Shown: one piece after another, positions 38,407 to 64,000 of the stretch
Layout of the letters: each line of letters starts with the position of its first letter
Position numbering within the stretch: the first letter of the stretch is position 1
Assembly: GCA_964187785.1 (NCBI GenBank)
Contig: OZ076409.1
Location: forward strand, 21,330,001-21,394,000
Origin: Amphiscolops sp. MND2022
Lineage: Eukaryota
Direction of reading: 5' to 3'
Length of the DNA: 64,000 bases
Made by a program: the position numbers and the translations under genes
Notes under the pieces: generated by a model
Database searches by the model: none
Told to the model about the DNA's origin: nothing
Seen by the model: the letters and a program-made list of their open reading frames with translations, nothing else

Positions 38407-38643
38407 TCGTTGATTGTCGTGCGAACGACAGATCTTTTCACAGAGACGCGTGATGAAAATTTCACTGCTCTCGCTTAAAGAACCCTGTACTTCCAAAGCC
38501 ACCGGTTGAAAAATGTATCCATTGTCTATTCATTCGCGATACTTCCCAAGGTTACGTTTTTCAGCCTCTGTGGTTTCTGGGTTGCATAAAGAGCTTTGAT
38601 TCAAGAGACTGGGTCAAGAGCATCCACAACCGTGACATCCCAC

Positions 38644-38992
38644 GTTTCGTCACCAGCCGCTTGGGCGACAGAAAACTCAGCCCATTTCGGCGACAATAAT
38701 GTCGCCCAAATGTCCCGTAGACTAAATTGCCGAATAAATATGTTCACATACCCCTAGTGCACTAAATGCAGGAGCGAAGCGAAGCAGAGCGACGTGCCAT
38801 ATGGCCATGCCTCAATGTTGCTACTTGGCGAAGGGAGCGAAGTGACCTAGCCATACAACAAATATTCTATTCTCTTCAAATGTATCAGTTAATTGATCAA
38901 TTTGATCAACCCATTTGGTCGACCCTTTTGTCGCCCATGTGAGCGATGCCATATTGTTGCCCAAAAGGCTCGTAACGAAATGTCACTGACCC
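38644..38992. mobile_element. MULE-like MITE
   Basis: Arms GTTTCGTCACCAGCCGCTTGGGCGACA / TGTTGCCCAAAAGGCTCGTAACGAAAT. Host sequence ACATCCCAC (9 bp) is duplicated on both sides. The left TIR tip appears to be missing. Confidence 0.65.
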
Positions 38993-40429
38993 ACATCCCA
39001 CAACAGCTGTTTACCCAATTACCAAGGAAACATGGTAACACCGTCTGGGCGTTTGCCATCAGTTTGGTACAGTCCACGCGGTCCGAAAATTGAAGGCAGG
39101 TCGAGAGATCCCAACGTCTGCTCTATGAGAGAAATGGCGGTGGATGTTTGAATCAAATCAATGGGAGGACGGAATGAGATTTAATGGAATAAGATCTAAC
39201 GCGTTGAGATTGCTGGAGAACACCTCACCCATGTCAATTTGAGACATTTTATGAGTTTAGACCTCATTCCGGTTTCTAGAATCAATTCGCGCGAATATGC
39301 AATTTGTCACTGAGATCGAAGTAAAATGGTCAAACGAAATGAGATGGAATCAATGTTTTAAACTACCTAGCGTTTGCAAAAAACAATGTGTTTGGCCCTT
39401 TGATACATCCCCATTTCCTCTAGTGCCCCGCGGCTCCTTGGGGCAAATTGTGTTTTCATCTTCCTAATCGAGGTCAAACAGGAGCAAAAACCTAGCGCGA
39501 ACGGATATCGCGAAGCAACCGTGGTGGGAGCTCGTCTTTGCGACGGTGAGGGCTAGCGTGCATACACCGTATAAGACCCCATATCAGTTGGAGAAAAGAA
39601 CCTAAAAGATTTATAAACGCTTTTAAACGCTTTGAATGAGCAAAACCGTAGCAAAAACGGAACAATTCTGTCTCAAACCTTCCGATCCATATTCGATCTT
39701 GTTTTTTCGATCTTACACAAAATCGATCTCAAAATACCTCACCGAGAAAAGTGAGAATAGCATGGCGTGAGAAGCGACCAGCTCTCTTGGTGCAAGAAAG
39801 ACTATGAGAACCGTCCCGTTCAACTCTTTTACCACAGTGGCACGTATGCGCAACACAGATGTTGGCTCCGAGACGCAAACCAATTGAAATCAAAAGCTGC
39901 TGGTCATCAAGTTTCAGGCCTAGGTCCATGCAAGGAGCGACGTTGAGCCATTGAGACCCAAACTTTCCTTGATGAGCGTTAAGAACTTTCGAACGTTTGT
40001 CATTTCGTGATGTTTGGATTCAGATCCCACGTCATTTTCGGACTCACCCCCAGTCATACGATTCCCATGTCATTGCGCATGCACGATCACCTTTCGGTGT
40101 AGGAATGACTGTCATCTTGTTGGGGAAAAGGCACAAATCCGTGGTCTGCAACGAAAGAAAACCCATACCAGCCACAATCCTTGTCGAGAGAGAGAGAGAA
40201 AAAAACGCTTAATTACTATACCTTACACTGGTGAGCATAAATATGCGCTTCAAGGAAAATTTGAAAAGGCTAAAACAGGAAGCTGAAAAACTAAACTATT
40301 CGCGCCACCATGAAGATTTTGAATTCAATTCAAATACTTTATCACGTTTTGAGGTTGCAATCACGAAAAATGGTCAGTTTTTCGTGTTAAAAAAGAAGCG
40401 AATTGATTGGTGCAAAAAAGTTTGGTGCA

Positions 40430-41030
40430 ACTTTTGACCAAGTTTCTGCCAAATAAGGATATCAAAAACGAACAGTCAAGAACACTTAGCGGCGCTATTT
40501 ATCAACCGGTTCAGTTCGAGATAGGCACAGACCGGGACGACCAAAGATTTTCTTAGTACGAAGCGAAAGACGAATTGTTAGAAAACATGAAGAAAACCCA
40601 TTTTTGACAGCGATTGAGTCCGGCGACCAATGGGCCGTAAGTAGGTTTACTGTTGCAGATGGCCGAATACTCAAGAAGCATGGTCTACAATGCAGAAAAC
40701 CCCACAAAGTGCCAGTAATTAGTCAACAAAACAAAAACATGCGACGCAATTTTGCAGACAAAACTAGAAGGTGGAACTAACAATGGAAACAAATCTTATG
40801 GTCAGATGAGAGTAGGTTTTGCTTGCACCAGCATGATGGTCGGATCAAAATCTATCGTCAACACAAAACCCGATATGCAAAAGAAATCAACTGCAATTTG
40901 ATCGCTGGAAAATGGAAGAACATTGGTTTGGTCTGGAATTTCTCACAACAAGAAAGCTTATTGATTCCATGCCAAGACGAATTATTCAATGTATCCGAAA
41001 AAGAGGTGGACCGACCAGCTATTAGACTCA
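40430..41030 (+). pseudogene. Tc1 transposase relic
   Basis: DRHRPGRPK, RILKKHGLQCRKP, WKQILWSDESRF, DGRIKIYR across broken frames. Confidence 0.8.
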
Positions 41031-41114
41031 GTTTATCGACATTGTTGTGTTTTATTATACCTAAATCTGTTATTCGATATTCAAGCGCATATTTTTGCTC
41101 AGCAGTATATAAAA

Positions 41115-44100
41115 CATAGGCGCGACGGCATGTCGCGCTTAGGCACGAGCAGAAACGTTTAATGGTCTGCAGAAGGTGTAACAAATTCTTTGTGTTCCAA
41201 GGCCCACAACCTTGTGAACTTATCCAGTCTCAGATGAGGATATTTTGATGAAAGAACTAAAAAGATGAAGGAAATTTTTTATTGAGAAAAATGAAAAAAT
41301 GTTTTTTTGGCAGAAACCCGAAAGCGTCATACTTCATGACGGAAACTTTGATAGTACAAAAAGTAGCCTAGGTACTTGCCTCATTTTGTGAGGGAGAATG
41401 GTTTTCTTATCTAATTCCAGTTCGGAGAAAAATCAGCTACAAATTGTAAAAAAATGGAAAAAAAATCGGAAAAAAATTTTTTATTATTTTATTTGCTAAA
41501 ACAAATCCAGAGCGAAAAAAATTTCGACATCAATTTTAGCCTAAAACGTAGCCTACATAATCTTTGTAAAATTAACGAAACCATGAACCCCATATTTGGT
41601 CTCGGTCATGAGATATACGAGCTCAAGTAAAAAAGAACCAAGAATTTTTTTTGAAAAAAATTGAAGTTTTTTTGGCAGAAAAACGAAGGCGTCATACTTG
41701 CTGACGGTAACTTTGTTAGTCCAAAAAGTAGCCTCTATCTATGTTGTTCTTCTCGAAAGACAACAGTTTCTGTATCTTTTCTCAGTTTTGAGAAATATGA
41801 GCTTGGAATGAGAAAAAACTTTTCGAAAAATTTTTTGTCCTCTTTTTGCTCAAAAACACCGGGTATGAAAACAATTTTGACGTCATTTTTAAGCCAAAAT
41901 GTAGCCTCTAAAACTCTTGTACAGTGTACGAAACCATGGACATTGTATTCGGTCTCAGTTCTGAGATATAGGAGATCAAAGATGAAAAATTGCCAAAATT
42001 AGCGTTTTTTCAAAACTTCTTTTGGGAAAAACCCATGAAGCCGAATTTTTTTCGAAAATTTTTTTTAGCGAAAACGTAGCCTAGGATCCTGCGCAACTTT
42101 AAGCGAAAATATGATGTCCGTATCTGTTCTGGAATTTGAGAAATTTGCCTCACAAGTTTGAAAAATTGGCACATGTCACGAAATCTGCGAAAAAAAACAT
42201 AGGTGCGACAGCATGTCGCGCTTGGGGTCAAGCAGAAACGTTCAATGGTCTGCAGAAGGTGTTACAAAATCTTTGTGTTCCAGGGCGCACAACCTTGTGA
42301 ACTTATCCAGTCTCAGATGAGGATATTTTGATGAAAAAGCTAAAAAGATGAAGGAAATTTTTTATTGAGAAAAATGAAAAAAGTATTTTTGGCAGAAACC
42401 CGAAGGCGTCATACCTCATGACGGAAACTTTGATAGTACAAAAATTAGCGTTCTTACTTGCCTCACTTTGTTAGGAAGAATGGTATTCGTATCTATTTTC
42501 AGTTCTGAGAAAAATTAGCTACAAATTGGAAAAAATGGAAAAAATTCAGAAAAATTTTTTCATTACTTTATTTGCTAAAAAAATCCAGAGCGAAAAAAAT
42601 TTCGACATCACTTTCAACCTTAAACGTAATCTACATAGGCTTCGTAAGATTAACGAAACCATGAATCCAATATTTGGTCTCGGTCATGAGATATACGAGC
42701 TCAAGTAAAAAAAAAACAAGAAATTTTTCTGAAGAATTTCGAAGTTTATTTGGCAGAAAAACGAAGGCGTCATACTTGATGACGGTAACTTTGTTGGTCC
42801 CAAAAATAGCCTACATCTATGCTGTTCTTCTCGAAAGTGAACGGTTTCTGTATCTTTTATCAGTTTTGAGAAATATGAGTTTGGAATGAGAAAAAAATTT
42901 TCGAAAAATTTTTTGTCCTCTTTTTTGCCCAAAAACACCAAGTATGAAAAAAAATTGACGTCATTTTTAGGCTGAAATGTAGCCTATAAAATGCTTGTAC
43001 AATTTACGAGACCATGGACATTGTATACGGTCGCAGTTCTGAGATATAGGAGATCAAAGATGAAAAATTGTCAAAAATAGCGTTTTTTCAAAACTTCTTT
43101 TAAAAAAAACCCATGAAGCCGATTTTTTTTCGAAACTTTTTTTCGGCGAAAATGTAGCCTAGGATCCTGCGCAAGTTTTAGCGAAAACATGGTGTCCGTA
43201 TCTGTTCTGAATTTTGAGAAATTTGCCTCACAAGTTTGAAAAATTGGCACATGTCACGAAATCTGCGAAAAAAAAACATAGGCGCGACAGCATGTCGCGC
43301 TTGGGGTCAAGCAGAAACGTTCAATGGTCTGCAGAAGGTGTTACAAAATCTTTGTGTTCCAGGGCGCACAACCTTGTGAACTTATCCAGTCTCAGATGAC
43401 GATATTTTGATGAAAAAGCTAAAAAGATGAAGGAAATTTTTTATTGAGAAAAATGAAAATTCTATTTTTGGCAGAAACCCGAAGGCGTCATACCTCATGA
43501 CGGAAACTTTGATAGTACAAAAATTAGCGTTCATACTTGCCTCACTTTGTTAGGAAGAATGGTATTCGTATCTATTTTCAGTTCTGAGAAAAATTAGCTA
43601 CAAATTGGAAAAAAATGGAAAAAATTCAGAAAAATTTTTTCATTACTTTATTTGCTAAAAAAATCCAGAGCGAAAAAAATTTTGGAATCACTTTCAACCT
43701 TAAACGTAGTCTACATAGGCTTCGTAAGATTAACGAAACCATGAATCCAATATTTGGTCTCGGTCATGAGATATACGAGCTCAAGTAAAAAAAAACCAAG
43801 AAATTTTTTTGAAAAAATTCGAAGTTTATTTGGCAGAAAAACGAACGCGTCATACTTGATGACGGTTACTTTGTTGGTCCCAAAAATAGCCTATATCTAT
43901 GCTGTTCTTCTCGAAAGAGAACGGTTTCTGTATCTTTTATCAGTTTTGAGAAATATGAGTTTGGAATGAGAAAAAAATTTTCGAATTTTTTTGCCCAAAA
44001 ACACCGAGTATGAAAAAAAATTGACGTCATTTTTAGGCTGAAATGTAGCCTATAAAATGCTTGTACAATATACGCGACCATGGACATTGTATACGGTCGC

Positions 44101-44379
44101 AGTTCTGAGATATAGGAGATCAAAGATGAAAAATTGTCAAAAATAGCGTTTTTTCAAAACTTCTTTTAAAAAACACCCATGAAGCCGATTTTTTTTTCGA
44201 AAACTTTTTTCGGCGAAAATGTAGCCTAGGATCCTGCGCTAGTTTTAGAGAAAACATGGTGTCCGTATCTGTTCTGGATTTTGAGAAATTGGCCTCACAA
44301 GTTTGAAAAATTGGCACATGTCACGAAATCTGCGAAAAAAAAACGTCACCATTTGGGCATCTCGCAAAGCTCGTGTCCC
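41115..44379 (-). mobile_element. Putative non-autonomous Helentron-like element made of 3 tandem units of about 1.08 kb
   Basis: Units start at 41115, 42198 and 43277, each with hairpin G[C/T]GCGAC-N5-GTCGCGC. Subterminal inverted repeat GGCACGAGC (41142-41150) / GCTCGTGTCC (44369-44378). Terminal stem TTTGGGCA...TGTCCCAAA. Inserted in an A-run. Non-coding. The tandem structure is certain; the superfamily is inferred. Confidence 0.65.
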
Positions 44380-44380
44380 A

Positions 44381-47300
44381 AAAAGAAACAACTCATTTAG
44401 TACAGTAGGAGTAATTATAAAATGAAAATAAAATTAGTAGCACCTTTGAACTTTTGCAGAAGATGGAAGCAATGCCAAAAATGGTTTTTGTAATGTGGAC
44501 ATTGTTTGTAAAGTAGTAACATGTGTTCTTTGATAAGTTGCTTCCATTTTTCTCGCTTGTATATGATTGTTCTCGATCCAGAGGGTAAGGAATTTGAACT
44601 TCTCAAACAAATATAAAAGAATGTTCCATGAATAAACTTACTTGAACCAGCCTCTTTCAATAGAAATTTTTTTGTTTCGATCATTCATTCAAAAACTCAC
44701 TGTTAAGAGTTTAAGGTCATTCTGAAATACTGAACTTCCGTTTTTGAGAATCGAAATTATTAAGTCAAATGATTATAAGTCAGTTCTTTAGTTCAAACCT
44801 AATATTTCTTCAGATATTCTTAAGGAGGTTAAGTATTTGTTTCTAGATCTGTAGAATACGGTTTGACGAGTCCAATTCAGCTGTTTCTCAAAGGAAAGTA
44901 AAAGAGCAATACTGATGTCCGTTAAAAGAAGGTTACAATATTCAAAATGACTTTGAACCAGAGCATGAAGCAGCACTTTTAAACGTTTTTTGGGTAGGTT
45001 GTTGCGAATTGTTTGGATTGCTTTTATGCCAAGGGCCATTTTTTGAAGTAAACTTTTAACTTGAGTTTCGAAAGTTAGTTTGTTGTAGATGATAATGCCT
45101 AAATACTTTGCTTCATTCTTAAGTTTTGTATTGGAACCGGCGACTATAAGTTGAATATTGGATACGGTCATTTTTGGTGTTGTAAAACGTAAGAGCTCTG
45201 TTTTAGATGCATTCAAAGTTACTTGATTCGACCGAAAATACTTTTCTAGGTTTTTGACACTGATTTGTAAATTCTCAAATGCACTATCAGATTTCGGATT
45301 CGCTGAGTATACCGAACAGTCATCGGCGTATTGGATAATTCTGCATTCTTCCGAGATGTGTTTTGTAATATCGGTATTGTAGGTGTTAAAAAGTAATGGG
45401 CCAAGTACTGTTCCTTGTGGTACACCTTGAAAGGTTTCGATAAAGTCAGATACCGTATTATTGATAACAACTTGTTCACGTCTGTGTGATAAAAAGCTAA
45501 AATTTAGTGGCAGAGCGTCGTCATTGAAGCCGATTAATTTCAATAAATCCATCTAAATTTGATGGGATACGGAATCATCGAATGCTTTCGAAAGATCTAT
45601 ACATACTGAATAAATAGAATCGTTATTGTCCACATGTTTAAGGATCGATTCGGTGAAATAAATGAGAGCATCTTGTGTTGATACTTTCTGGCCAATCCAA
45701 ATTGGAAAGGAGACAGAAGTTTATCAGATAATAGGTATTGATTATTTTGTTTATGCAAAATTTTTTGAAGTTTTTTCGACATACTGCTCGTTTCTGTAAT
45801 AGGTCTGTAGTTCAAAGGGTTTAGTGGATCATCTTTTCTATATAGAAGTGTAATGAGACCTTTCTTCAAAACTGAGGGAAATTATTGTGTTTTATTATAC
45901 CTATTCTGTTATTCGAGATTCAAGCGCATATTTTTGTTCAGCAGTATATGAAAAAGAAACAACTCATTTAGTACAGTAGGCGTAATTATAAAATGAAATT
46001 AAAATTAGTAGCACTTTTGAACTTTTGGAAAAGATAGAAGCCATGCCAAAATTGGTTTTTATAATGTGGACATTGCTTGTAAAGTAGTAACATGTTTTCT
46101 TTGATAAATTTCTTCCATTTTTCTCGCTTGTATTTGATTGTTCTCGATTCAGGGGGTAAAGAATTCGAACTTCTCAAACAGGTATAAAAGAATGTTCCAT
46201 GAGGAAACTTACTTGAACCAGGCTCTTTCAATAGAATTTTTTTGTTTCGATCATTCATTCGAAAACTCACTGTTCAGAGTTTAAGGTGATTCTGAAAAGC
46301 TGAACTTCCGTTTTTGAGAATCGAAATTAATAATTCAAATGATTTTAAGTCAATTCTTTAATTCATACCTAATACTTCTTCAGATATTCTCGAGGAGGTT
46401 GAGTATTTGTTTCTAGATCTGTAGAACACGGTTTGAAGAGTCCAGTTCAGTTATTTCTCAAAAGTAAGTAAAAGAGCAAATATGAAGTCCGTTAAAGGAA
46501 GGTTACAATATTCAAAATGACTTTGAACAAGAGCATGAAGCAGCACTTTTAAACGTTTATTGGGTAGGTTGTTGCAATTTGTTTGGGTTGCTTTTATGCC
46601 AAGGGCCATTTTTTGAAGTAAACTTTTAACTTGAGTTTCGAAAGTTAGTTTGTTGTAGATGATAATGCCTGAAATTCGACCGAAAATACTTTTCTAGGTT
46701 TTTGACACTGATTTGTAAATTCCCAAATGCAATATCAGATTTTGGATTCGCTGAGTATACCGAACATTCATCGGCGTATTGGATAATTCTGCATTCTTCC
46801 GAGATGTGTTTTGTAATATCGGTATTGTAGGTGTTAAAAAGTAATGGGCCAAGTACTGTTCCTTGTGGTACACATTGAAAGGTTTCGATAAAGTCAGATA
46901 CCGTATTATTGATAACAATTTGTTCACGTCTGTGTTATAAAAAGATAAAAATTTGGTGACAGAGCGTCGTCATTGAAGCCGATTAATTTCAATAAATCCA
47001 TCTAAATTTGATGGGATACGGAATCATCGAATGCTTTCGAAAGATCTATACATACTGAATAAATAGAATCGTTATTGTCCACATGTTTAAGGATCGATTC
47101 GGTGAAATAAATGAGAGCATCTTGTGTTGATACTTTCTGGCCAATCCAAATTGGAAAGGAGACAGAAGTTTATCAGATAATAGGTATTGATTATTTTGTT
47201 CATGCAAAATTTTTTGAAGTTTTTTCGACATACTGCTCGTTTCTGTAATAGGTCTGTAGTTCAAAGGGGTTAGTGGATCATCTTTTCTATATAGAAGTGT

Positions 47301-50300
47301 AATGAGACCTTTCTTCAAAATTGAGGGAAATTATTGTGTTTTATTATACCTATTCTGTTATTCGATATTCAAGCGCATATTTTTGTTCAGCAGTATATGA
47401 AAAAGAAACAACTCATTTAGTACAGTAGGCGTAATTATAAAATGAAATTAATATTAGTAGCACTTTTGAACTTTTGCAAAAAATGGAAGCCATGCGAAAA
47501 TTGGTTTTTTATTGTGGACATTGTTTGTAAAGTAGTAACATGTGTTCTTTGATAAGTTTCTTCCATTTTTCTCGCTTGTATTTGATTGTTCTCAATTCAG
47601 AGGGTAAAGAATTCGAACTTCTCAAACAGGTATAAAAGAATGTTCCATGAAGAAACTTACTTGAACCAGGCTCTTTCAATAGAGTTTTTTTTGTTTTGAT
47701 CATTCAATCGAAAACTCACTGTTCAGAGTTTAAGGTGATTCTGAAAAGCTGAACTTCCGTTTTTGAGAATCGAAATTAATAAGTCAATTGATTATAAATT
47801 ATTTCTTTAATTCATTCCTAATATTTTTTCAGATATTCTCGAGGAGTTTGAGTATTTGTTTCTAGATCTGTAGAATACGGTTTGAAGAGTCCAATTCTGT
47901 TGTTTCTCAAAAGTAAGTAAAAGAGCAATTATGATGTCCCTTAAAAGAATGTTACAATATTCAAAATGACTTTGAACAAGAGCATGAAGCAGCACTTTTA
48001 AACGTTTTTTGGGTAGGTTGTTGCAAATTGTTTGAATTGCTTTAATGCCAAGGGCCATTTTTGAAGTAAACTTTGAACTTGAGTTTCGAAAGTTAGTTTG
48101 TTGTAGATGATAATGCCTAAATACTTTACTTCATTCCTAAGTTTTGTATTGGAACCGGCGACTATAAGTTGATTATTGGACACGGTCAGTTTTGGTGTTG
48201 TGAAACGTATAAGCTCTGTTTTAGATGCATTCAGAGTTACCTGATTCGACCGAAAATACTTTTCTACGTTTTTGACACTGATTTGTAAATTCTCAAATGC
48301 AATATCAAATTTTGGATTCGCTGAGTATACCGAACATTCATCGGCGTATTGGATAATTCTGCATTCTTCCGAGATGTGTTTTGTAATATCGGTATTGTAG
48401 GTGTTAAAAAGTAATGGGCCAAGTACTGTTCCTTGCGGTACACCTTGAAAGTTTTCGATAAAGTCAGATACCGTATTATTGATAACAACTTGTTCACGTC
48501 TGTGTAATAAAAAGCTAAAATTTAGTGTCAGAGCATCGTCATTGAAGCCGATTAATTTCAATAAATCCATCTAATTTTGATGGGATACGGAATCGAATGC
48601 TTTCGAAAGATCTATACATACTGAATAAATAGAATCGTTAATGTCCACATGTTTAAGGATCGATTCGGTGAAATAAATGAGAACATCTTGTGTTGATACT
48701 TTCTGGCGGAAGCCAAATTGGAAAGAAGACTAAAATTTATCAGATAATAGGTATTGATTATTTTGTTTATGCAAAAATTTTTGAAGTATTCTCGACAAAC
48801 TGCTCGTGTTTGTAATTCGTCTGTAGTTCAAAGGGTTTAGTGGATCATCTTTTTTATATAGAGGTGTAATGAGACCTTTCTTCAAAATTGAGGAAAATTA
48901 TTGTGTTTTATTATACCTAAATCTGTTACTCGATATTCAAGCGCATTTTTTTTCTGCAGTATATGAAAAAGAAACAACTCAGTTAGTACAGTAGGCGTAA
49001 TTATAAATTGAAATTAAAATTATGAGCACTTTTGAACTTTTGCAAAAGATAGAAGCTATGCCAAAATTGGTTTTTATAATGTGGACATTGTTTGTAAAGT
49101 AGTAACATGTGTTCTCTGATAAATTTCTTCCTTTTTTCCTAATTGTATTTGATTGTTCTCAATTCAGAGGGTAAGGAATTCCAACTTCTCAAACAGGTAT
49201 AAAAGAATGTTCCATGAAGAAACTTACTTGAACCAGGCCCTTTCAATGTAAATTTTTTGTTTCGATTATTCATTCAAAAACTCACTGTTGAGAGTTTAAG
49301 GTGATTCTGAAAAGCTGCACCTCCGTTTTTGAGAATCGAAATTATTAAGTCAAATGATTTTAAGTCAATTCTTTAATTCATTTCTAATACTTCTTCAGAT
49401 ACTCTCGAGGAGGTTGAGTATTTGTTTCTATATCTGTAAAATACGGTTTGAAGAGTTCAATTCACTTGTTTCTCAAAAGAAAGTAAAAGAGCAATACTGA
49501 TGTCCATTAAAAGAAGGTTACAATATTCAAAATGACTTTGAACAAGAGCATGAAGCAGCACTTTTAAACATTTTTTGAGTAGGTTGTTGCGAATTCTTTG
49601 GATTGTTTTTATGCCAAGGGCCATTTTTTGAAGTAAACTTTTAACTTGAGTTTCGAAAGTTAGTTTGTTGTAGATGATAATGCCTAAATACTTTACTTCA
49701 TTCTTAAGTTTTGTATTGGAACCGGCGACTTCAAGTTGATTATTGGATACGGTCATTTTTGGTGTTGTGAAACGTATCACTTCTGTTTTAGATGCATTCA
49801 GAGTTACCTGATTCGACCAAAAATACTTTTCTATGTTTTTGACACTGATTTGTAAATTCTCAAATGCAAAATCAGATTTTGGATTCGCTGAGTATACCGA
49901 ACAGTGATCGGCGTATTGGATAATTCTGCATTCTTCCGAGATGTGTTTTGTAATATCGTTATTGTAGGTGTTAAAAAGTAATGGGCCAAGTACTGTTCCT
50001 TGCGGTACACCTTGAAAGGTTTCGAAAAAGTCAGATACCGTATTATTGATAACAACTTGTTCACGTCTGTGTGATAAAAAGCTAAAATTTAGTGGCAGAG
50101 CATTGTCATTGAAGCCGATTAATTTCAATTTATCCATCAAAATTTGATGGGATGCATAATCGAATGCTTTCGAAAGATTTATACATTCTGAATGAATAGA
50201 CTCGTTTTTGTCCACATGTTTAAGGATCGATTCGGTGAAATAAATGAGAGCATCTTGTGTTGATACTTTCTGGCGGAAGCCAAATTGGAAAGGATACAGA

Positions 50301-53300
50301 AGTTTATCAGATGATAGGTATTGAATTTTTTGTTTATGCAAAAATTTTTAAGTATTCTCGACAAACTGCTCGTTTTTGTAATGGGTCTGTTGTTCAAAGG
50401 GTTTAGTGGATCATCTTTTTTATATAGAGGTGTAATGAGACCTTTTTTCAAAATTGAGGGAAATTATTGTGTTTTATTATACCTAAATCTGGTATTCGAT
50501 ATTCAAGCGCATATTTTTGCTCAGCAGTATATGAAAAAGAAACAACTCGTTTAGTACAGTAGGCGTAATTATAAAATGAAATTAAAATTAGTAGCATTTT
50601 TGAACTTTTGCAAAAGATGGAAGCCTCGCCAAATTTAGTTTTTATAATGTGGGCATTGTTTGTAAAGTAGTAACATGTGTTCGTTGATGAATTTCTTCCA
50701 TTTGTCTTGCTTGTATTTGATTGTTCTAAATTCAGAGGGTAAGGAATTCGAACTTCTCAAACATGTATAAAAGAATGTTCCATGAAGAAACTTACTCGAA
50801 CCGGGCTCTTTCAATATAATTTTTTTGCTTTGATCATTCATTCGAAAACTCACTGTTGAGAGTTTAAGGTGATTCTGAAAAGCTGAACTTCCGTTTTTGA
50901 GAATCGAAATTATTAGGTCAAATGATTTTAAGTCAATTCTTTAATTCATACCTAATACTTCTACAGATATACTCGAGGAGGTTGAGTATTCGTTTCTAGA
51001 TCTGTAGAATACGGTTTGAAGAGTCCAATTCAGTTGTTTCTCAAAAGAAAGTAAAAAAGCAATACTGATGTCCGTTAAAGGAAGGTTACAATATTCAAAA
51101 TGACTTTGAACAAGAGCATGAAGCAGCACTTTTAAACATTTTTTGGGTAGGTTGTTGCAAATTGTTCGGGTTGCTTTTATGCCAAGGGCCATTTTTTAAA
51201 GTAAACTTTGAACTTGAGTTTCGAAAGTTAGTTTGTTGTAGATGATAAAACCAAATTACTTTACTTCATTCTTAAGTTTTGTATTGGAACCGGCGACTTT
51301 AACTTGATTATTGGATACGGTCATTTTTGGTGTTGTGAAACGTATCAGCTCTGTTTTAGATGCATTCAGAGTTACCTGCTTCGACCGAAAATGTTTTTCT
51401 ATGTTTTTGACACTGATTTGTAAACTCTCAAATTCAAAATCAGATTTTGGATTCGCTGAGTAAACCGAACAGTGATCGGCGTATTAGATAATTCTGCATT
51501 CTTCCGAGATGTGTTTTGTAATATCGTTATTGTAGGTGTTAAAAAGTAATGGGTCAAGTACTGTTCCTAGCGGTACACCTTGAAAGGTTTCAATAAAGTC
51601 AGATACCGTATTATTGATAACAACTTGTTCACGTCTGTGTGATGAAAAGCTAAAATTTAGTGTCAAAGCATTGTCATTGAAGCCGAATAATTTCAATTTA
51701 TCCATCAAAATTTGATGGGATACATAATCGAATGCTTTCGAAAGATTTATACATTCTGAATGAATAGAATCGTTATTGTCCACATGTTTAAGGATCGATT
51801 CGGTGAAATAAATGAGAGCATCTTGTGTTGATACTTTCTGGCAGAAGCCAAATTGGAAAGGAGACAGAAGTTTATCAGATGATAGGTATTGATTATTTTG
51901 TTTATGCAAAATTTTTCAAGTATTCTCGACAAACTGCTCGTTTTTGTATTGGGTCTGTAGTTCAATGGGTTTAGTGGATCATCTTTTTTTAGAAATGTAA
52001 TGATACCTTTTTTCAAAATTGAGGGAAATTATTGTGTTTTATTATATTTAAATCTGTTATTCGATATTCAAGCGCATATTTTTGCTCAGCAGTATATAAA
52101 AAAGAAACAACTCATTTAGAACAGTAGGCGTAATTATAAAATGAAATTAAAATTAGTAGCACTTTTGAACTTTTGCAAAAAATGGAAGCCATGACAAAAT
52201 TGGTTTTCTAATGTGGACGTTGTTTGTAAAGTAGTAACATGTGTTCCTTGATAAATTTCTTCCATTTTTCTTGCTTGTATTTGATTGTTCTAAATTCAGA
52301 GGGTAAGGAATTCGAACTTCTCAAACATGTATAAAAGAATGTTCCATGAAGAAACTTACTCGAACCGGGCTCTTTCAATATAATTTTTTTGCTTTGATCA
52401 TTCATTCGAAAACTCACTGTTGAGAGTTTAAGGTGATTCTGAAAAGCTGAACTTCCGTTTTTGAGAATCGAAATTATTAGGTCAAATGATTTTAAGTCAA
52501 TTCTTTAATTCATACCTAATACTTCTACAGATATACTCGAGGAGGTTGAGTATTCGTTTCTAGATCTGTAGAATACGGTTTGAAGAGTCCAATTCAGTTG
52601 TTTCTCAAAAGAAAGTAAAAAAGCAATACTGATGTCCGTTAAAGGAAGGTTACAATATTCAAAATGACTTTGAACAAGAGCATGAAGCAGCACTTTTAAA
52701 CATTTTTTGGGTAGGTTGTTGCAAATTGTTCGGGTTGCTTTTATGCCAAGGGCCATTTTTTAAAGTAAACTTTGAACTTGAGTTTCGAAAGTTAGTTTGT
52801 TGTAGATGATAAAACCAAATTACTTTACTTCATTCTTAAGTTTTGTATTGGAACCGGCGACTTTAACTTGATTATTGGATACGGTCATTTTTGGTGTTGT
52901 GAAACGTATCAGTTCTGTTTTAGATGCATTCAGAGTTACCTGCTTCGACCGAAAATGTTTTTCTATGTTTTTGACACTGATTTGTAAACTCTCAAATTCA
53001 AAATCAGATTTTGGATTCGCTGAGTAAACCGAACAGTGATCGGCGTATTAGATAATTCTGCATTCTTCCGAGATGTGTTTTGTAATATCGTTATTGTAGG
53101 TGTTAAAAAGTAATGGGCCAAGTACTGTTCCTCGCGGTACACCTTGAAAGGTTTCGAAAAGTTAGATACCGTATTATTGATAACAATTTGTTCACGTCTG
53201 TGTGATAAAAAGCTAAAATTTAATGTCAGAGCATTGTCATTGAAGCCGATTAATTTCAATTTATCCATCGAAGTTTGATGGGCAACATAATCGAAAGCTT

Positions 53301-56300
53301 TCGAAAGATTTATACATTCTGAATGAATAGACTCGTTATTGTCCACATGTTTAAGGATCGATTCGGTGAAATAAATGAGAGCATCTTGTGTTGATTTTTT
53401 CTGGCGGAAGCCAAATTGGAAAGGATACAGAAGTTTATCAGATGATAGGTATTGAATTTTTTGTTTATGCAAAAATTTTTAAGTATTCTCGACAAACTGC
53501 TCGTTTTTGTAATGGGTCTGTAGTTCAAAGGGTTTAGTGGAACATCTTTTTTATATAGAGGTGTAATGAGACCTTTTTTCAAAATTGAGGGAAATTTTTG
53601 TGTTTTATTATACCTAAATCTGGTATTCGATATTCAAGTGCGTATTTTTGCTCAGCAGTATATGAAAAAAAAACAACTCATTTAGTACAGTAGGCGTAAT
53701 TATAAAATGAAATTAAAATTAGTAGCATTTTTGAACTTTTGCAAAAGATGGAAGCCTCGCCAAATTTGGTTTTTATAATGTGGGCATTGTTTGTAAAGTA
53801 GTAACATGTGTTCGTTGATAAATTTCTTCCATTTGTCTTGCTTGTATTTGATTGTTCTAAATTCAGAGGGTAAGGAATTCGAACTTCTCAAACATGTATA
53901 AAAGAATGTTCCATGAAGAAACTTACTTGAACCGGGCTCTTTCAATATAATTTTTTTGTTTTGATCATTCATTCGAAAACTCACTGTTGAGAGTTTAAGG
54001 TGATTCTGAAAAGCTGAACTTCCGTTTTTGAGAATCGAAATTATTGAGTCAAATGATTTTAAGTCAATTCTTTAATTCATACCTAATACTTCTACAGATA
54101 TACTCGAGGAGGTTGAGTATTCGTTTCTAGATCTGTAGAATACGGTTTGAAGAGTCCAATTTAGTTGTTTCTCAAAAGAAAGTAAAAGAGCAATACTGAT
54201 GTCCGTTAAAGGAAGGTTACAATATTCAAAATGACTTTGAACAAGAGCATGAAGCAGCACTTTTAAACATTTTTTGGGTAGGTTGTTGCAAATTGTTCGG
54301 GTTGCTTTTATGCCAAGGGCCATTTTTTAAAGTAAACTTTGAACTTGAGTTTCGAAAGTTAGTTTGTTGTAGATGATAAAACCAAATTACTTTACTTCAT
54401 TCTTAAGTTTTGTATTGGAACCGGCGACTTTAACTTGATTATTGGATACGGTCATTTTTGGTGTTGTGAAACGTATCAGCTCTGTTTTAGATGCATTCAG
54501 AGTTACCTGCTTCGACCGAAAATGTTTTTCTATGTTTTTGACACTGATTTGTAAACTCTCAAATTCAAAATCAGATTTTGGATTCGCTGAGTAAACCGAA
54601 CAGTGATCGGCGTATTAGATAATTCTGCATTCTTCCGAGATGTGTTTTGTAATATCGTTATTGTAGGTGTTAAAAAGTAATGGGCCAAGTACTGTTCCTC
54701 GCGGTACACCTTGAAAGGTTTCGAAAAGTTAGATACCGTATTATTGATAACAATTTGTTCACGTCTGTGTGATAAAAAGCTAAAATTTAATGTCAGAGCA
54801 TTGTCATTGAAGCCGATTAATTTCAATTTATCCATCGAAGTTTGATGGGCAACATAATCGAAAGCTTTCGAAAGATTTATACATTCTGAATGAATAGACT
54901 CGTTATTGTCCACATGTTTAAGGATCGATTCGGTGAAATAAATGAGAGCATCTTGTGTTGATTTTTTCTGGCGGAAGCCAAATTGGAAAGGATACAGAAG
55001 TTTATCAGATGATAGGTATTGAATTTTTTGTTTATGCAAAAATTTTTAAGTATTCTCGACAAACTGCTCGTTTTTGTAATGGGTCTGTAGTTCAAAGGGT
55101 TTAGTGGAACATCTTTTTTATATAGAGGTGTAATGAGACCTTTTTTCAAAATTGAGGGAAATTTTTGTGTTTTATTATACCTAAATCTGGTATTCGATAT
55201 TCAAGTGCGTATTTTTGCTCAGCAGTATATGAAAAAAAAACAACTCATTTAGTACAGTAGGCGTAATTATAAAATGAAATTAAAATTAGTAGCATTTTTG
55301 AACTTTTGCAAAAGATGGAAGCCTCGCCAAATTTGGTTTTTATAATGTGGGCATTGTTTGTAAAGTAGTAACATGTGTTCGTTGATAAATTTCTTCCATT
55401 TGTCTTGCTTGTATTTGATTGTTCTAAATTCAGAGGGTAAGGAATTCGAACTTCTCAAACATGTATAAAAGAATGTTCCATGAAGAAACTTACTTGAACC
55501 GGGCTCTTTCAATATAATTTTTTTGTTTTGATCATTCATTCGAAAACTCACTGTTGAGAGTTTAAGGTGATTCTGAAAAGCTGAACTTCCGTTTTTGAGA
55601 ATCGAAATTATTGAGTCAAATGATTTTAAGTCAATTCTTTAATTCATACCTAATACTTCTACAGATATACTCGAGGAGGTTGAGTATTCGTTTCTAGATC
55701 TGTAGAATACGGTTTGAAGAGTCCAATTTAGTTGTTTCTCAAAAGAAAGTAAAAGAGCAATACTGATGTCCGTTAAAGGAAGGTTACAATATTCAAAATG
55801 ACTTTGAACAAGAGCATGAAGCAGCACTTTTAAACATTTTTTGGGTAGGTTGTTGCAAATTGTTCGGATTGCTTTTATGCCAAGGACCATTTTTTGAAGT
55901 AAACTTTGAACTTGAGTTTCGAAAGTTAGTTTGTTGTAGATGATAAAACCAAATTATTTTACTTCATTCTTAAGTTTTGTATTGGAACCGGCGACTTTAA
56001 CTTGATTATTGGATACGGTCATTTTTGGTGTTGTGAAACGTATCAGCTCTAATTTAGATGCATTCAGAGTTACCTGATTCGACCGAAAAAACTTTTCTAT
56101 GTTTTTGACACTGATTTGTAAATTCTCAAATGCAATATCAGATTTTGGATTCGCTGAGTATACCGAACAGTGATCGGCGTATTAGATAATTCTGCATTCT
56201 TCCGAGATGTGTTTTGTAATATCGTTATTGTAGGTGTTAAAAAGTAATGGGTCAAGTACTGTTCCTTGCGGTACACCTTGAAAGGTTTCAATAAAGTCAG

Positions 56301-59300
56301 ATACTGTATTATTGATAACAACTTTTTCACGTCTGTGTGATGAAAAGCTAAAATTTAGTGTCAGAGCATTGTCATTGAAGCCGAATAACTTCAATTTATC
56401 CATCAAAATTCGATGGGATACATAATCGAATGCTTTCGAAAGATTTATACATTCTGAATGAATAGAATTGTTATTGTCCACATGTTTAAGGATCGATTCG
56501 GTGAAAAAAATGAGAGCATCTTGTGTTGATACTTTCTGGCGGAAGCCAAATTGGAAAGGAGACAGAAGTTTATCAGATGATAGGTATTGATTATTTTGTT
56601 TATGCAAAACTTTTTAAGTATTCTCGACAAACTGCTCGTTTTTGTATTGGGTCTGTAGTTCAATGGGTTTAGTGGATCGTCTTTTTTATATAGAAGTGTA
56701 ATGATACCTTTTTTCAAAATTGAGGGAAATTATTGTGTTTTATTATATTGAAATCTGTTATTCGATATTCAAGCGCATATTTTTGCTCAGCAGTATATAA
56801 AAAAGAAACAACTCATTCAGTACAGTAGGCGTAATTAGAAAATGAAATTAAAATTAGTAGCACTTTTGAACTTTTGCAAAAAATGGAAGCCATGCCAAAA
56901 TTGGTTTTTTAATGTGGACATTGTTTGTAAAGTAGTAACATGTGTTCCTTGATAAATTTCTTCCATTTTTCTTGCTTGTATTTGATTGTTCTAAATTCAG
57001 AGGGTAAGGAATTCGAACTTCTCAAACAGATATAAAAGAATGTTCCTTGAAGAAACTTACTTGAACCAGGCTCTTTCAATATAGTTTTTTTTGTTGCGAT
57101 CATTCACTCGAAAACTCACTGTTGAGAGTTTAAGATGATTCTGAAAAGCTGAACCTCCGTTTTTGAGAATTGAAATTATTAAATTAATAAGTCAAATGAT
57201 TTTAAGTCAAGTCTTTAATTCATACCTAATACTTCTTCAGATATTCTCGAAGAGGTTGAGTATTTGTTTCTAGATCTGTAGAATACGGTTTGAAGAGTCC
57301 AATTCAGTTGTTTCTCAAAAGAAAGTAAAAGAGCAATACTGATGTCCGTTAAAAGAAGGTTACAATATTCAAAACGACTTTGAACAAGAGCATGAAGCTG
57401 CACTTTCAAACATTTTTTGGGTAGGTTGTTGCGAATTGTTTGGATTGCTTTTATGCCAGAGGCCATTTTTTGAAGTAAACTTTGAACTTGAGATTCGAAA
57501 GTTGGTTTGTTGTAGATGATAAAGCCTAAATACTTTACTTCATTCTTAAGTTTTGTATTGGAACTGGCGACTTTAAGTTGAATATTGGATACGGTCATTT
57601 TTGGTGTTGTGAAACGTATCAGCTCTGTTTTAGATGCATTCAAAGTTACTTGATTCGACCGAAAAAACTTTTCTAGGTTTTTGACACTGATTTGTAAATT
57701 CCCAAATGCAATATCAGATTTTGGATCCGCTGAGTATACCGAACATTCATCGGCGTATTGGATAATTCTGCATTCGTCCGAGATGTGTTTTGTAATATCG
57801 TTAATGTAGGTGTTAAAAAAGAATGGGCCAAGTACTGTTCCTTGCAGTACACCTTGAACGGTTTCGATAAATACAGATACCGTATTATTGATAACAACTT
57901 GTTGACGTCTGTGTGATAAAAAGCTAAAATTTAGTGTCAGAGCATTGTCATTGAAGCCGAATAATTTCAATTTATTCATCAAAATTTGATGGGATACATA
58001 ATCGAATGCTTTCGAAAGATTTGTACATTCTCAATGAACAGAATCGTTATTGTCCACATGTTTGAGGATCGATTCGGTGAAATAAATGAGAGCATTTTGT
58101 GTTGATATTTTCTGGCGGAAGCCAAATTGGAAAGGAGAGGGAAGTTTATCAGATGATAGCTATTGATCATTTTGTTTATGCAAAAATTTTTAAGTATTCT
58201 CGACAAACTGCTCGTTTTTGTAATGGGTCTGTAGTTCAAAGGGTTTAGTGGATCATCTTTCTTATATAGAGGTGTAATGAGACCTTTTTTTAAAATTGAG
58301 GGAAATCATTGTGTTTTATTATACCTAAATCTGTTATTCGATATTCAAGCGCATAATTTTGCTCAGCAGTATATTAAAAAAAACTCATTTAGTACAGTAG
58401 GCGTAATTATAATATGAATTTAAAATTAGTAGCACTTTTGAACTTTAGCAAAAGATGGAAGCCATGCCAAAATTGGTTTTTATAATGTGGACATTGTTTG
58501 TAAAGTAGTAACATGTGTTCGTTGATAAATTTTTTCCATTTTTCTTGCTTGTATTTGATTGTTCTAAATTCAGAGGGTAAGGAATTCGAACTTCATAAAC
58601 AGGTATAGAAGAATGTTCCATGAAGAAACTTACTTGAACCGGGCTCTTTCAATATAATTTTTTTGTATCGATCATTCATTCGAAAACTCACTGTTGAGAG
58701 TTTAAGGTGATTCTGAAAAGCTGAACTTCCGTTTTTGAGAATCGAAATAATTAAGTCAAATGATTTTAAGTCAATTCTTTAATTCATACCTAATACTTTT
58801 ACAGATATACTCAAGGAGGTTGAGTATTCGTTTCTAGATCTGTAGAATACGGTTTGAAGAGTCCAATTCAGTTGTTTCTCAAAAGAAAGTAAAAGAGCAA
58901 TACTAATGTCCGTTAAAGGAAGGTTACAATATTCAAAATGACTTTGAAAAAGAGCATGAAGCAGCACTTTTAAACATTTTTTGGGTAGGTTGTTGCAAAT
59001 TGTTCGGATTGCTTTTATGCCAAGGGCCATTTATCAAAGTAAACTTTGAACTTGAGTTTCGAAAGTAAGTTTGTTGTAGATGATAAAACCTAAATACTTT
59101 ACTTCATTCTTAAGTTTTGTATTGGAACCGGCGACATTAAGTTGATTATTGGATACGGTCATTTTTGGTGTTGTGAAACGTATCAGCTCTGTTTTAGATG
59201 CATTCAGAGTTATCTGATTCGATCGAAAATACTTTTCTATGTTTTTGACACTGATTTGTAAATTCTCAAATGCAATATCAGATTTTGGTTTCGCTGATTA

Positions 59301-62300
59301 TACCGAACAATGATCAGCGTATTGGATAATTCTGCATTCTTCCGAGATGTGTTTTGTAATATCGTTATTGTAGATGTTAAAAAGTAATGGGCCAAGGGTT
59401 TAGTGGATCATCTTTCTTATATAGAGGTGTAATGAGACCTTTTTTTAAAATTGAGGGAAATCATTGTGTTTTATTATACCTAAATCTGTTATTCGATATT
59501 CAAGCGCATAATTTTGCTCAGCAGTATATTAAAAAAAACTCATTTAGTACAGTAGGCGTAATTATAATATGAATTTAAAATTAGTAGCACTTTTGAACTT
59601 TAGCAAAAGATGGAAGCCATGCCAAAATTGGTTTTTATAATGTGGACATTGTTTGTAAAGTAGTAACATGTGTTCGTTGATAAATTTTTTCCATTTTTCT
59701 TGCTTGTATTTGATTGTTCTAAATTCAGAGGGTAAGGAATTCGAACTTCATAAACAGGTATAGAAGAATGTTCCATGAAGAAACTTACTTGAACCGGGCT
59801 CTTTCAATATAATTTTTTTGTATCGATCATTCATTCGAAAACTCACTGTTGAGAGTTTAAGGTGATTCTGAAAAGCTGAACTTCCGTTTTTGAGAATCGA
59901 AATAATTAAGTCAAATGATTTTAAGTCAATTCTTTAATTCGTACCTAATACTTTTACAGATATACTCAAGGAGGTTGAGTATTCGTTTCTAGATCTGTAG
60001 AATACGGTTTGAAGAGTCCAATTCAGTTGTTTCTCAAAAGAAAGTAAAAGAGCAATACTAATGTCCGTTAAAGGAAGGTTACAATATTCAAAATGACTTT
60101 GAAATAGAGCATGAAGCAGCACTTTTAAACATTTTTTGGGTAGGTTGTTGCAAATTGTTCGGATTGCTTTTATGCCAAGGGCCATTTTTCAAAGTAAACT
60201 TTGAACTTGAGTTTCGAAAGTAAGTTTGTTGTAGATGATAAAACCTAAATACTTTACTTCATTCTTAAGTTTTGTATTGGAACCGGCGACATTAAGTTGA
60301 TTATTGGATACGGTCATTTTTGGTGTTGTGAAACGTATCAGCTCTGTTTTAGATGCATTCAGAGTTATCTGATTCGATCGAAAATACTTTTCTATGTTTT
60401 TGACACTGATTTGTAAATTCTCAAATGCAATATCAGATTGTGGTTTCGCTGATTATACCGAACAATGATCAGCGTATTGGATAATTCTGCATTCTTCCGA
60501 GATGTGTTTTGTAATATCGTTATTGTAGATGTTAAAAAGTAATGGGCCAAGTACTGTTCCTTGCGGTACACCTTGAAAGGTTTCGATAAAGTCAGATACC
60601 GTATTATTGACAACAACTTGTTCACGTCTGTGTGATAAAAAGCTAAAACTTAGTGTCAGAGCATTGTCATTGAAGCCGATTAATTTCAATTTATCCATCA
60701 AACTTTGATGGGATACATAATCGAATGCTTTCGAAAGATTTATACATTCTGAATGAATAGAATCGTTATTGTCCACATGTTTAAGGATCGATTCGGTGAA
60801 ATAAATGAGAGCATCTTGTGTTGATACTTTCTGGCGGAAGCCAAATTGGAAAGGAAACAGAAGTTTATCAGATGATAGGTATTGATTATTTTGTTTATGC
60901 AAAAATTTTTAAGTATTCTCGACAAACTGCTCGTTTTTGTAATGGGTCTGTAGTTCAAAGGGTTTATTGGATCATCTTTTTTATATAGAAGTGTAATGAG
61001 ACCTTTTTTTAAAATTGAGGGAAATTATTGTGTTATATTATATTTGAATCTGTTATTCGATATTCAAGCGCATATTTTTGCTCAGCAGTATATAAAAAAG
61101 AAACAACTCATTTAGTACAGTAGGCGTAATTATAAAATGAAATTAAAATTAGCAGCACTTTTGAACTTTTGCAAAAAATGGAAGCCATGCCAAAATTGGT
61201 TTTTTAATGTGGACATTGTTTGTAGAGTAGTAACATGTGTTCCTTTGTAAATTTCTTCCATTTTCTTGCTTGTATTTGATTGTTCTAAATTCAGAGGGTA
61301 AGGAATTCGAATTTCTCAAACAGGTATAAAAGAATGTTCCTTGAAGAATCTTACTTGAACCAGGCTCTTTCAATATAGTTTTTTTGTTTCGATCATTCAC
61401 TCGAAAACTCACTGTTGAGAGTTTCAAGTGATTCTGAAAAACTGAACCTACGTTTTTGAGAATTGAAATTAATAAATTAATAAGTCAAATGATTTTAAGT
61501 CAATTCTTTAATTCATAGCTAATACTTCTTCAGATATTCTCGAAGAGGTTGAGTATTTGTTTCTAGATCTGTAGAATACGGTTTGAAGAGTCCAATTCAG
61601 TTGTTTCTTAAAAGAAAGTAAAAGAGCAATACTGATGTCCGTTAAAAGAAGGTTACATTACTCAAAATGACTTTGAACAAGAGCATGAAGCTGCACTTTT
61701 AAACATTTTTTGGGTAGGTTGTTGCGAAGTGTTTGGATTGCTTTTATGCCAGGGGCCATTTTTTGAAGTAAACTTTGAACTTGAGTTTCGAAAGTTAGTT
61801 TGTTGTAGATGATAAAGCCTAAATACTTTACTTCATTCCTAAGTTTTGTATTGGAACCGGCGACTATAAGTTGATTATTGGATACGGTCAGTTTTGGTGT
61901 TGTGAAACATATAAGCTCTGTTTTAGATGCATTCAGAGTAACCTGATTCGACCGAAAATATGTTTCTATGTTTTTGACACTGATTTGTAAATTCTCAAAT
62001 GCAATATCAGAATTTGTATTCGCTGAGTAAACCGAACAGTCATCGGCGTATTGGATAATTCTGCATTCGTCCGAGATGTGTTTTGTAATATCGTTAATGT
62101 AGGTGTTAAAAAGTAATGGGCCAAGTACTGTTCCTTGCGGTACACCTTGAACGGTTTCGATGAAATCAGATACCGTATTATTGATAACAACTTGTTGACG
62201 TCTGTGTGATAAAATGCTTAAATTTAGTGTCAGAGCATTGTCAATTCAGGCGAATAATTTCAATTTATTCATCAAAATTTGATGGGATACATAATCGAAT

Positions 62301-64000
62301 GCTTTCGAAAGATTTATACATTCTCAATGAATAGAATCGTTATTGTCCACATGTTTAAGGATCGATTCGGTGAAATAAATGAGAGCATTTTGCGTTGATA
62401 TCTTCTGGCGGAAGCCAAATTGGAAAGGAGACAGAAGTTTATCAGATGATAGGTATTGATTATTTTGTTTATGCAAAAATTTTTAAGTATTCTCGACAAA
62501 CTGCTCGTTTTTGTAATGGGTCTGTAGTTCAAAGGGTTTATTGGATCATCTTTTTTATATAGAAGTGTAATGAGACCTTTTTTTAAAATTGAGGGAAATT
62601 ATTGTGTTATATTATATTTGAATCTGTTATTCGATATTCAAGCGCATATTTTTGCTCAGCAGTATATAAAAAAGAAACAACTCATTTAGTACAGTAGGCG
62701 TAATTATAAAATGAAATTAAAATTAGTAGCACTTTTGAACTTTTGCAAAAAATGGAAGCCATGCCAAAATTGGTTTTTTAATGTGGACATTGTTTGTAGA
62801 GTAGTAACATGTGTTCCTTTGTAAATTTCTTCCATTTTCTTGCTTGTATTTGATTGTTCTAATTTCAGAGGGTAAGGAATTCGAACTTCTCAAACAGGTA
62901 TAAAAGAATGTTCCTTGAAGAATCTTACTTGAACCAGGCTCTTTCAATATAGTTTTTTTGTTTCGATCATTCACTCGAAAACTCACTGTTGAGAGTTTCA
63001 AGTGATTCTGAAAAACTGAACCTACGTTTTTGAGAATTGAAATTAATAAATTAATAAGTCAAATGATTTTAAGTCAATTCTTTAATTCATAGCTAATACT
63101 TCTTCAGATATTCTCGAAGAGGTTGAGTATTTGTTTCTAGATCTGTAGAATACGGTTTGAAGAGTCCAATTCAGTTGTTTCTTAAAAGAAAGTAAAAGAG
63201 CAATACTGATGTCCGTTAAAAGAAGGTTACATTACTCAAAATGACTTTGAACAAGAGCATGAAGCTGCACTTTTAAACATTTTTTGGGTAGGTTGTTGCG
63301 AAGTGTTTGGATTGCTTTTATGCCAGGGGCCATTTTTTGAAGTAAACTTTGAACTTGAGTTTCGAAAGTTAGTTTGTTGTAGATGATAAAGCCTAAATAC
63401 TTCACTTCATTCTTAAGTTTTGTATTGGAACCGGCGACTTTAAGTTGATTATTGGATACGGTCATTTTTGGTGTTGTGAAACGTATCAGCTCTGTTTTAG
63501 ATGCATTCAGAGTTACCTGATTCGACCGAAAATATTTTTCTATGTTTTTGACACTGATTTGTAAATTCTCAAATGCAATATCAGAATTTGTATTCGCTGA
63601 GTAAACCGAACAGTCATTGGCGTATTGGATAATTCTGCATTCGTCCGAGATGTGTTTTGTAATATCGTTAATGTAGGTGTTAAAAAGTAATGGGCCAAGT
63701 ACTGTTCCTTGCGGTACACCTTGAACGGTTTCGATGAAACCAGATACCGTATTATTGATAACAACTTGTTGACGTCTGTGTGATAAAATGCTTAATTTTG
63801 GGGTCAGAGCATTGTCAATTAAGGCGATTAATTTCAATTTATTCATCAAAATTTGATGGGATACATAATCGAATGCTTTCGAAAGATTTATACATTCTCA
63901 ATGAATAGAATCGTTATTGTCCACATGTTTAAGGATCGATTCGGTGAAATAAATGAGAGCATTTTGCGTTGATATCTTCTGGCGGAAGCCAAATTGGAAA
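44381..64000 (-). repeat. Macrosatellite of about 1.57-kb LINE-derived RT/3'UTR units (at least 13, continuing past the window end)
   Basis: Marker AAACAACTCATTTAGTACAGTAGG recurs near 44383, 45954, 47403, 48969, 50537, 52102, 53669, 55237, 56802, 58378, 59533, 61098, 62672. Each unit encodes a broken FPSILKKG..NYRPI..QFGFR..LSKAFD..GVPQGTVLGPLLF..YAD[D/E/H]..KMALGIK..EKQLNW peptide. Confidence 0.97.

Follow-up and report, generated by a model that had tools for sequence, protein, structure and literature searches.

A tandem array of LINE reverse transcriptase and Tc1-like transposon sequence in the genome of Amphiscolops sp. MND2022

A 64,000-nucleotide stretch of the Amphiscolops sp. MND2022 genome (GenBank assembly GCA_964187785.1, contig OZ076409.1, positions 21,330,001 to 21,394,000 of the forward strand; hereafter the window, whose own numbering is used below) carries at 41041-64000 a tandem array of 13 units, which derive for about 95% of their length from a long interspersed nuclear element (LINE) and for the remainder from the end of a Tc1-like DNA transposon. 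The best explanation of this array, with a probability of roughly 0.85, is that it was born by DNA-level segmental duplication in a nest of dead transposons at a single locus and was expanded by unequal exchange. All units lie in one orientation, with the LINE sense on the minus strand. On the right the array extends beyond the window, so at least 13 units exist.

The array and its chimeric unit

The units and the elements at the left border are as follows.

40216-40223, minus strand: probable remainder of the LINE 3' tail beyond the Tc1 element, reading K-V-stop, 8 nt only
40224-41109, plus strand: Tc1/mariner-type DNA transposon, 886 bp, transposase broken, TA at both ends, placed inside the 3' untranslated region (3'UTR) of the LINE
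41041-41109, plus strand: right end of the Tc1 element (subterminal part and terminal inverted repeat), about 69 bp, which recurs in every unit, for example at 45881-45948 in U02
41041-45880, minus strand: U01, the boundary unit, 1575 bp without its insertion, continuing into the whole Tc1 element
about 41115-44379, minus strand: insertion in U01, 3.27 kb, three head-to-tail units of about 1.08 kb, Helentron/HINE-like
45881-47329, minus strand: U02, 1449 bp, internal deletion of 122 bp, mosaic with a U01-like 5' half
47330-48896, minus strand: U03, 1567 bp
48897-50462, minus strand: U04, 1566 bp, with an open frame of 296 aa, the longest in the array, in which YADH replaces YADD
50463-56728, minus strand: U05-U08, the youngest block, 1.7-4.7% apart
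56729-58304, minus strand: U09, 1576 bp, with an 8-bp insertion also found in U12 and U13
58305-59459, minus strand: U10, 1155 bp, from an out-of-register duplication
59460-62597, minus strand: U11 and U12, 1564 bp and 1574 bp
62598-64000, minus strand: U13, cut by the window end, 1.3% from U12

Self-BLAST of the window, a self-comparison of the kind that the original prediction had proposed, confirmed direct multi-kilobase repeats over 44380-64000 at 89-99.7% identity (E = 0), well above chance, while Tandem Repeats Finder, with its period limit of 500, was blind to the array. Thirteen junction anchors were located between 41045 and 62602, spaced in order by 4840, 1449, 1567, 1566, 1565, 1566, 1567, 1568, 1576, 1155, 1564 and 1574 bp. 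The spacing is 1564-1576 bp in nine of 12 intervals, the unit length falls in the same range in 10 of 13 units (U01 counted without its insertion), and the pairwise distance between units is 0.9-8.7% with a mean of 6.4%. The 12 internal junctions are all in register and represent one shared junction, and neither poly(A) nor a target-site duplication (TSD) was found at any of them, in agreement with the fixed junction first described. The unit start had been placed at the FPSILKKG motif of the reverse transcriptase (RT) domain, and it is indeed there, at residue 104 of the family protein P0001, in all 12 units whose start is in the window; that of U13 lies past 64000. RVT_1 was matched in one unit open reading frame (ORF) each of U04 (E 3e-23) and U09 (E 1.6e-20), the only two frames scanned. 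The core observation of at least 13 same-orientation units of about 1.57 kb holds, with two corrections: the array is not strictly contiguous, U01 being interrupted by 3.27 kb, and it is not uniform in length, since U02 is without 122 bp, U10 measures 1155 bp and U13 is cut at 64000. The label macrosatellite is a loose fit for at least 13 units at seemingly one locus.

The composition of the unit differs from what had been described, namely the RT-plus-3'UTR half of a LINE, running through the ORF2 stop and repeated with no spacer. All 13 units read AAG at the position where ORF2 of the family stops, and the last 69 bp or so, taken for LINE 3'UTR, are the end of a Tc1-like transposon, terminal inverted repeat (TIR) included. 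The former description is incomplete because this Tc1 end is present in every unit and the real tail of the LINE is outside the unit. The TIRs of the element are 30 bp long and 26/30 complementary (arms 40224-40253 and 41080-41109, both ending in TA), and nothing else to the left of the array, over 41 kb, pairs as well as these two arms, which score 44 against 27 for the best unrelated match. Pfam HTH_Tnp_Tc3_2 was matched above its cut-off at 40505-40780 (E 8.7e-10), and the catalytic-side fragment of the same transposase gave no Pfam match. Every one of the 13 units has this TIR, with 0-4 differences. At the other side, the family read-through proteins P0126 and P0132 enter the 3'UTR and end LFLFYKV; the units follow this tail up to the TA, and K-V-stop is supplied by the bases just left of the Tc1 element, a kind of site that follows 4 of the 8290 TA dinucleotides in the window. 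This is suggestive of a LINE tail that resumes on the far side of Tc1, over 8 nt only. Taken together, the TIRs, the TA ends and the tail continuation indicate that Tc1 inserted into the LINE tail and that the repeated segment extends from 69 bp inside Tc1 to the RT start. As read from its sequence, the unit is a LINE-RT and Tc1-TIR chimera whose junction joins two internal breakpoints.

A dead founder copy amplified at the DNA level

The database protein closest to the array is P0001, with 77% identity to the U04 frame; it represents a cluster of 83 European Nucleotide Archive (ENA) proteins, 15 of them listed. The parental ORF2 was pieced together from the overlapping cluster members P0121, P0133 and P0131, and it consists of a 2A-like GDIERNPGP motif, an apurinic endonuclease-like (APE-like) domain and the RT. 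The N-terminal GD(V/I)ExNPGP motif and the APE upstream of the RT occur in the parent family only and are absent from the units; the APE-like domain matched Exo_endo_phos at E 0.003, below the curated cut-off. By its RT, APE and 2A-like motif the parent is classed as a family of APE-type retrotransposons lacking long terminal repeats (LTRs), i.e., a 2A-APE-RT LINE. Motifs of this type in such a layout are noted for the Rex1, Crack, L2, L2A, CR1 and Ingi clades in the pertinent part of one report (PMC3708506), and owing to this spread the family is not placed in one named clade. No close relative of P0001 or of the family alignment was found in viral contigs or in JGI metagenome contigs, where the family alignment matched two loci at 28% and 43%. 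The window has another LINE, nearly complete and from a related family, at 20759-25105 on the minus strand, with a 327-aa ORF1 without Pfam match, an ORF2 split in two frames and a 2A-like GDFEINPGP motif; it was ruled out as the parent, being 43% identical in protein to the array units.

Sixty-eight dispersed family proteins, not encoded in the window and at least 80% identical to P0001 over at least 100 residues, are located on many different contigs, with a median identity of 95% to their own majority sequence and up to 98-100% amino acid identity in some copies; the sample is one of open frames and hence biased towards young copies, and it may come from more than one organism. The units are 76-80% protein-identical to this majority. 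Array-type proteins (at least 85% identical to the U04 frame, together with their cluster members) numbered seven, all encoded in the window and on one 523,254-bp contig; the recall of this search was imperfect, the U13 frame not being returned, and seven of seven therefore hints only weakly at an array that is small, confined to a single locus and not much longer than seen. A short-protein search, which covered only the range of 30-77 aa, gave five uninformative matches at 68-82%.

That a single copy was amplified at the DNA level had been argued from the fixed junction, and the case now made is stronger than the junction alone could make. All 13 units share a TAA at family codon 466, the deletion of one codon near residue 564 and the AAG in place of the ORF2 stop. 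At 57 of 460 positions the family residue is found in no unit, and any one of the 68 dispersed proteins has at most seven of these diagnostic residues, although some of the 57 changes are also seen in a minority of dispersed copies. Substitutions among the units are neutral: distinct alleles are divided over the codon positions as 118/110/111 (chi-square p 0.85), and 85 synonymous and 18 nonsense alleles were observed against 84.0 and 18.9 expected, the expectation being built from the units' own mutation spectrum and thus from the same data. Each unit has 3-5 stops. Loss of the motif-A Asp from all units was also considered and is wrong, as D198 is kept in U01-U03, replaced by N in nine units and missing with its site in one. 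Judged by these features, the units encode no working RT and evolve neutrally. The shared stop and the neutral pattern cannot be explained by independent retrotransposition of active copies, and the mosaic units described below are further evidence for amplification of one copy.

Origin, expansion and alternative explanations

The array began with a 2A-APE-RT LINE copy that inserted and died, its nonsense codon, one-codon deletion and lost stop being common to all units. A Tc1-like element then entered a TA of the LINE 3'UTR, as the TIRs and TA ends show and the tail continuation suggests. A 1.57-kb tandem duplication, with breakpoints 69 bp inside Tc1 and at the RT start, would have produced the junction observed, probably through repair at imperfect microhomology. 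When the Tc1 side of the junction was compared with the family peptide upstream of the RT start, the best possible match was 11/13 nt, which 0.14% of 20,000 sampled Tc1 13-mers reach; this is an upper bound, as the match varies from 6 to 11 of 13 with the codons of the parent. The dimer then probably grew to at least 13 units by repeated, often out-of-phase local duplication and unequal exchange, over a time that spans unit drift of up to 8.7% and comes down to very recent events, and a Helentron-like trimer would have entered the boundary unit afterwards. The likeliest function of the product would be none, i.e., a nascent transposon-derived satellite that evolves passively.

The pattern of expansion is visible in the units. 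Units that lie farther apart are more divergent (Spearman 0.61, permutation p 2e-4), and the unit tree groups U01-03, U05-08, U10-11 and U09 with U12-13. U07 is a mosaic whose 5' half matches U06 and whose 3' half matches U08; among six hand-picked triplets tested for mosaic breakpoints, three were significant at p 0.001, two at 0.03-0.05 and one not. The most recent events have left an exact repeat of 1387 bp (52914-54300 = 54481-55867, offset 1567) and, at U10, an out-of-register 1155-bp duplication (58239-59396 versus 59394-60551, 99.66%) with a 3-bp overlap at the break. Neighbouring units differ by 10-113 substitutions but by 0-7 indel events. Such a pattern probably marks unequal exchange or repair-associated local duplication.

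The insertion in U01 is present in that unit only and so postdates the first duplication. It is a second tandem structure nested within the LINE array; its three units contain subrepeats of about 370 bp that are about 69% alike, each ends in a hairpin with a 7-bp stem, and the two inner junctions are without the 5' end of about 35 bp. The insertion occupies a T-tract immediately beyond the TA of the Tc1 element, with extra T residues at both ends. The 3' hairpin, the short subterminal inverted repeat, the T-tract target and the internal tandem repeats resemble Helentron/HINE (DINE-1-like) elements, but the subterminal inverted repeats given in the part of the description consulted are 11-15 nt long (PMC4067079), compared with a match of 8/9 nt here. 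For this reason its membership among Helentrons is no more than possible, and the element is called Helentron/HINE-like. Neither an autonomous partner nor a second insertion of it was found within the window. A 172-bp unit at 33904-34287 (2.2 copies, 86% alike) has a similar A/T-tract style to the subrepeats, with no BLAST match to them.

Several observations weigh against duplication and decay of one dead copy as the whole account. Fewer of the shared changes than expected fall on sites that distant relatives conserve (7/57 compared with 23% of columns, p 0.03), so that part of the stem leading to the units represents subfamily divergence under selection and not decay. The microhomology was derived by back-translation of the family peptide. 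A run-on into upstream ORF2 is predicted at the right end of the array, which is beyond the window, and was not seen. The youngest near-identical duplications are given as they stand in the assembly. Finally, 11 of 13 units have an AATAAA on the LINE-sense strand, about 11 nt ahead of the junction, which gives room for an RNA-mediated first step.

In such a first step, the Tc1-interrupted LINE would have given a read-through transcript that was cleaved downstream of the AATAAA supplied by the Tc1 end. An active member of the family would have provided reverse transcription in trans, and the product would have entered the source copy at the RT start, with unequal exchange thereafter. The enzyme could have been available, considering the family copies with up to 98-100% amino acid identity to the majority, and tail-to-internal LINE dimers made by double insertion are described as common in Drosophila (PMC5932611, in the portion consulted). 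On the other hand, the junction carries neither poly(A) nor TSD, the insertion must have fallen within 1.5 kb of the source locus, chance AATAAA is common in A/T-rich sequence of this kind, and a DNA event fits the microhomology equally. We regard an RNA-mediated origin of the dimer as improbable, though deserving of some weight.

It is somewhat less probable that the array has been kept for a function, either as centromeric or heterochromatic DNA or as a source of antisense small RNAs against the parent LINE, transcribed from the Tc1 side. Given the orientation, transcription proceeding outward from Tc1 would yield RNA antisense to the LINE, and 41-68% of 25-mers would pair within two mismatches if the units are 8-12% from active copies in DNA, as we assumed. 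Centromeric repeats of chicken, according to the section consulted, derive from CR1-C (PMC6947457). Unlike a multi-chromosome centromeric satellite, however, array-type proteins are found on this one contig only, and the units are heterogeneous, at a mean distance of 6.4%. The CpG observed/expected ratio of the array is 0.99, equal to that of the flanks, which also counts against function. No telomeric repeat runs were found in the window, and Rfam at gathering scores gave no match in 40000-52000. A narrower and still slimmer possibility is an antisense trap, in which transcription from the left-border Tc1 or from the Tc1 ends of the units would yield PIWI-interacting RNAs (piRNAs) against a LINE family with young copies, and selection would keep the turnover going; if so, a small-RNA cluster would here be seen as it arises, and one border would record all that preceded it. 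Function of any sort, the subtelomeric role first suggested included, has no support from the sequence evidence.

Transposases of the Tc1 type cut at the tip of the element, whereas the breakpoint here lies 69 bp further in, and the TIR tip and TA are intact and internal to the unit. This counts against the segment having been duplicated by a Tc1 transposase through alternative (reversed-ends or one-ended) transposition. Such an origin is very unlikely, despite a TIR in each unit and the attribution of arrays of Bari1, a Tc1-mariner element, to aberrant rolling-circle events in the sections consulted (PMC9659126, PMC5932611).

That the assembler multiplied one or two true copies is hardly credible. 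The exact 1387-bp and the 99.66% 1158-bp duplications speak for such an artefact; but the differences between neighbours are mostly substitutions rather than indels, ten unit clusters are left at a 2% cut-off and eight at 3%, and an artefact could cover the youngest three to five units at most. Repeated independent insertion of an active site-specific LINE into its own RT would explain the fixed 3' junction, as in the arrays described for R1 (PMC5932611, in part), and can be dismissed: the nonsense codon and Tc1 fragment are common to all units, their substitutions are neutral and not mainly synonymous, as purifying selection would have made them, and related family proteins are spread over many contigs.

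Comparison with known arrays and the rest of the window

The common cetacean satellite has a monomer of about 1.6-1.7 kb. This satellite, from the 3' part of L1, and the Phodopus PROsat, from L1 ORF2, are alike to the present array in deriving their monomer from the LINE 3' part or ORF2, as summarised in part of one review (PMC9659126); both are abundant, heterochromatic and L1-based, whereas the array studied here is small, apparently confined to one locus, and derived from a 2A-bearing APE-RT LINE. Tandem repeats of LINE origin are also known from chicken, in which the HinfI repeat holds partial ORF2 and 3'UTR of CR1 and the Cen repeats derive from CR1-C (PMC9659126 and PMC6947457, as far as consulted). 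They differ from the present array, where the unit is about 95% LINE plus a Tc1 end, the pre-duplication state is kept at the border, and there is no sign of high copy number or of a centromeric location. Similar in form are the R1, Bari1 and hobo arrays of Drosophila, which in the part of the report consulted have one identical junction, contain secondary deletions and transposon insertions and, in the case of hobo, reach a similar size of 13-19 copies (PMC5932611). Those arrays arose as double-insertion dimers followed by unequal exchange, and their junctions often have a TSD or element termini (PMC5932611); here both breakpoints are internal, two different dead elements are involved and the founder was already inactive.

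The array is thus a clear example of a known route of satellite birth, and the difference is a detail of origin, not a new system. The way in which transposon debris first gives rise to a long satellite monomer has mostly been guessed at from arrays that are old and homogenised. In the present case the left border keeps the pre-duplication arrangement, and the differences among the units allow the steps to be ordered, giving a worked example of internal segmental duplication across two dead elements as against the double-insertion route of Drosophila; neither a new mechanism nor a function is claimed. We found no paper naming this array, in literature searches that were not keyed to the host species and so cannot show the array to be unpublished.

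The window is transposon-dense throughout, and the following features were found outside the array.

362-1186, minus strand: Tc1-type transposase fragment, HTH_Tnp_Tc3_2 E 9.6e-14, of another family than the element at 40224-41109
5146-10355, minus strand: LTR retrotransposon that encodes RT, RNase H and integrase in one open frame of 1594 aa, its two terminal repeats of 192 bp being 100% identical
31707-33075, minus strand: APE fragment of a broken LINE, Exo_endo_phos E 8.5e-6
36547-37471, minus strand: RT fragment of a broken LINE, RVT_1 E 1.4e-15

The identical terminal repeats of the LTR retrotransposon point to a very recent insertion, and its domain order is Gypsy-type. Just left of the Tc1 element, 37734-39081 contains direct repeats in shuffled order, 89-247 bp long and 85-95% identical, one part of which is found inverted near 19172-19220; the region resembles a duplication that has been rearranged. 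Imperfect palindromes of about 300 bp (2926-3229) and about 120 bp (11252-11369) are possibly remnants of miniature inverted-repeat transposable elements.

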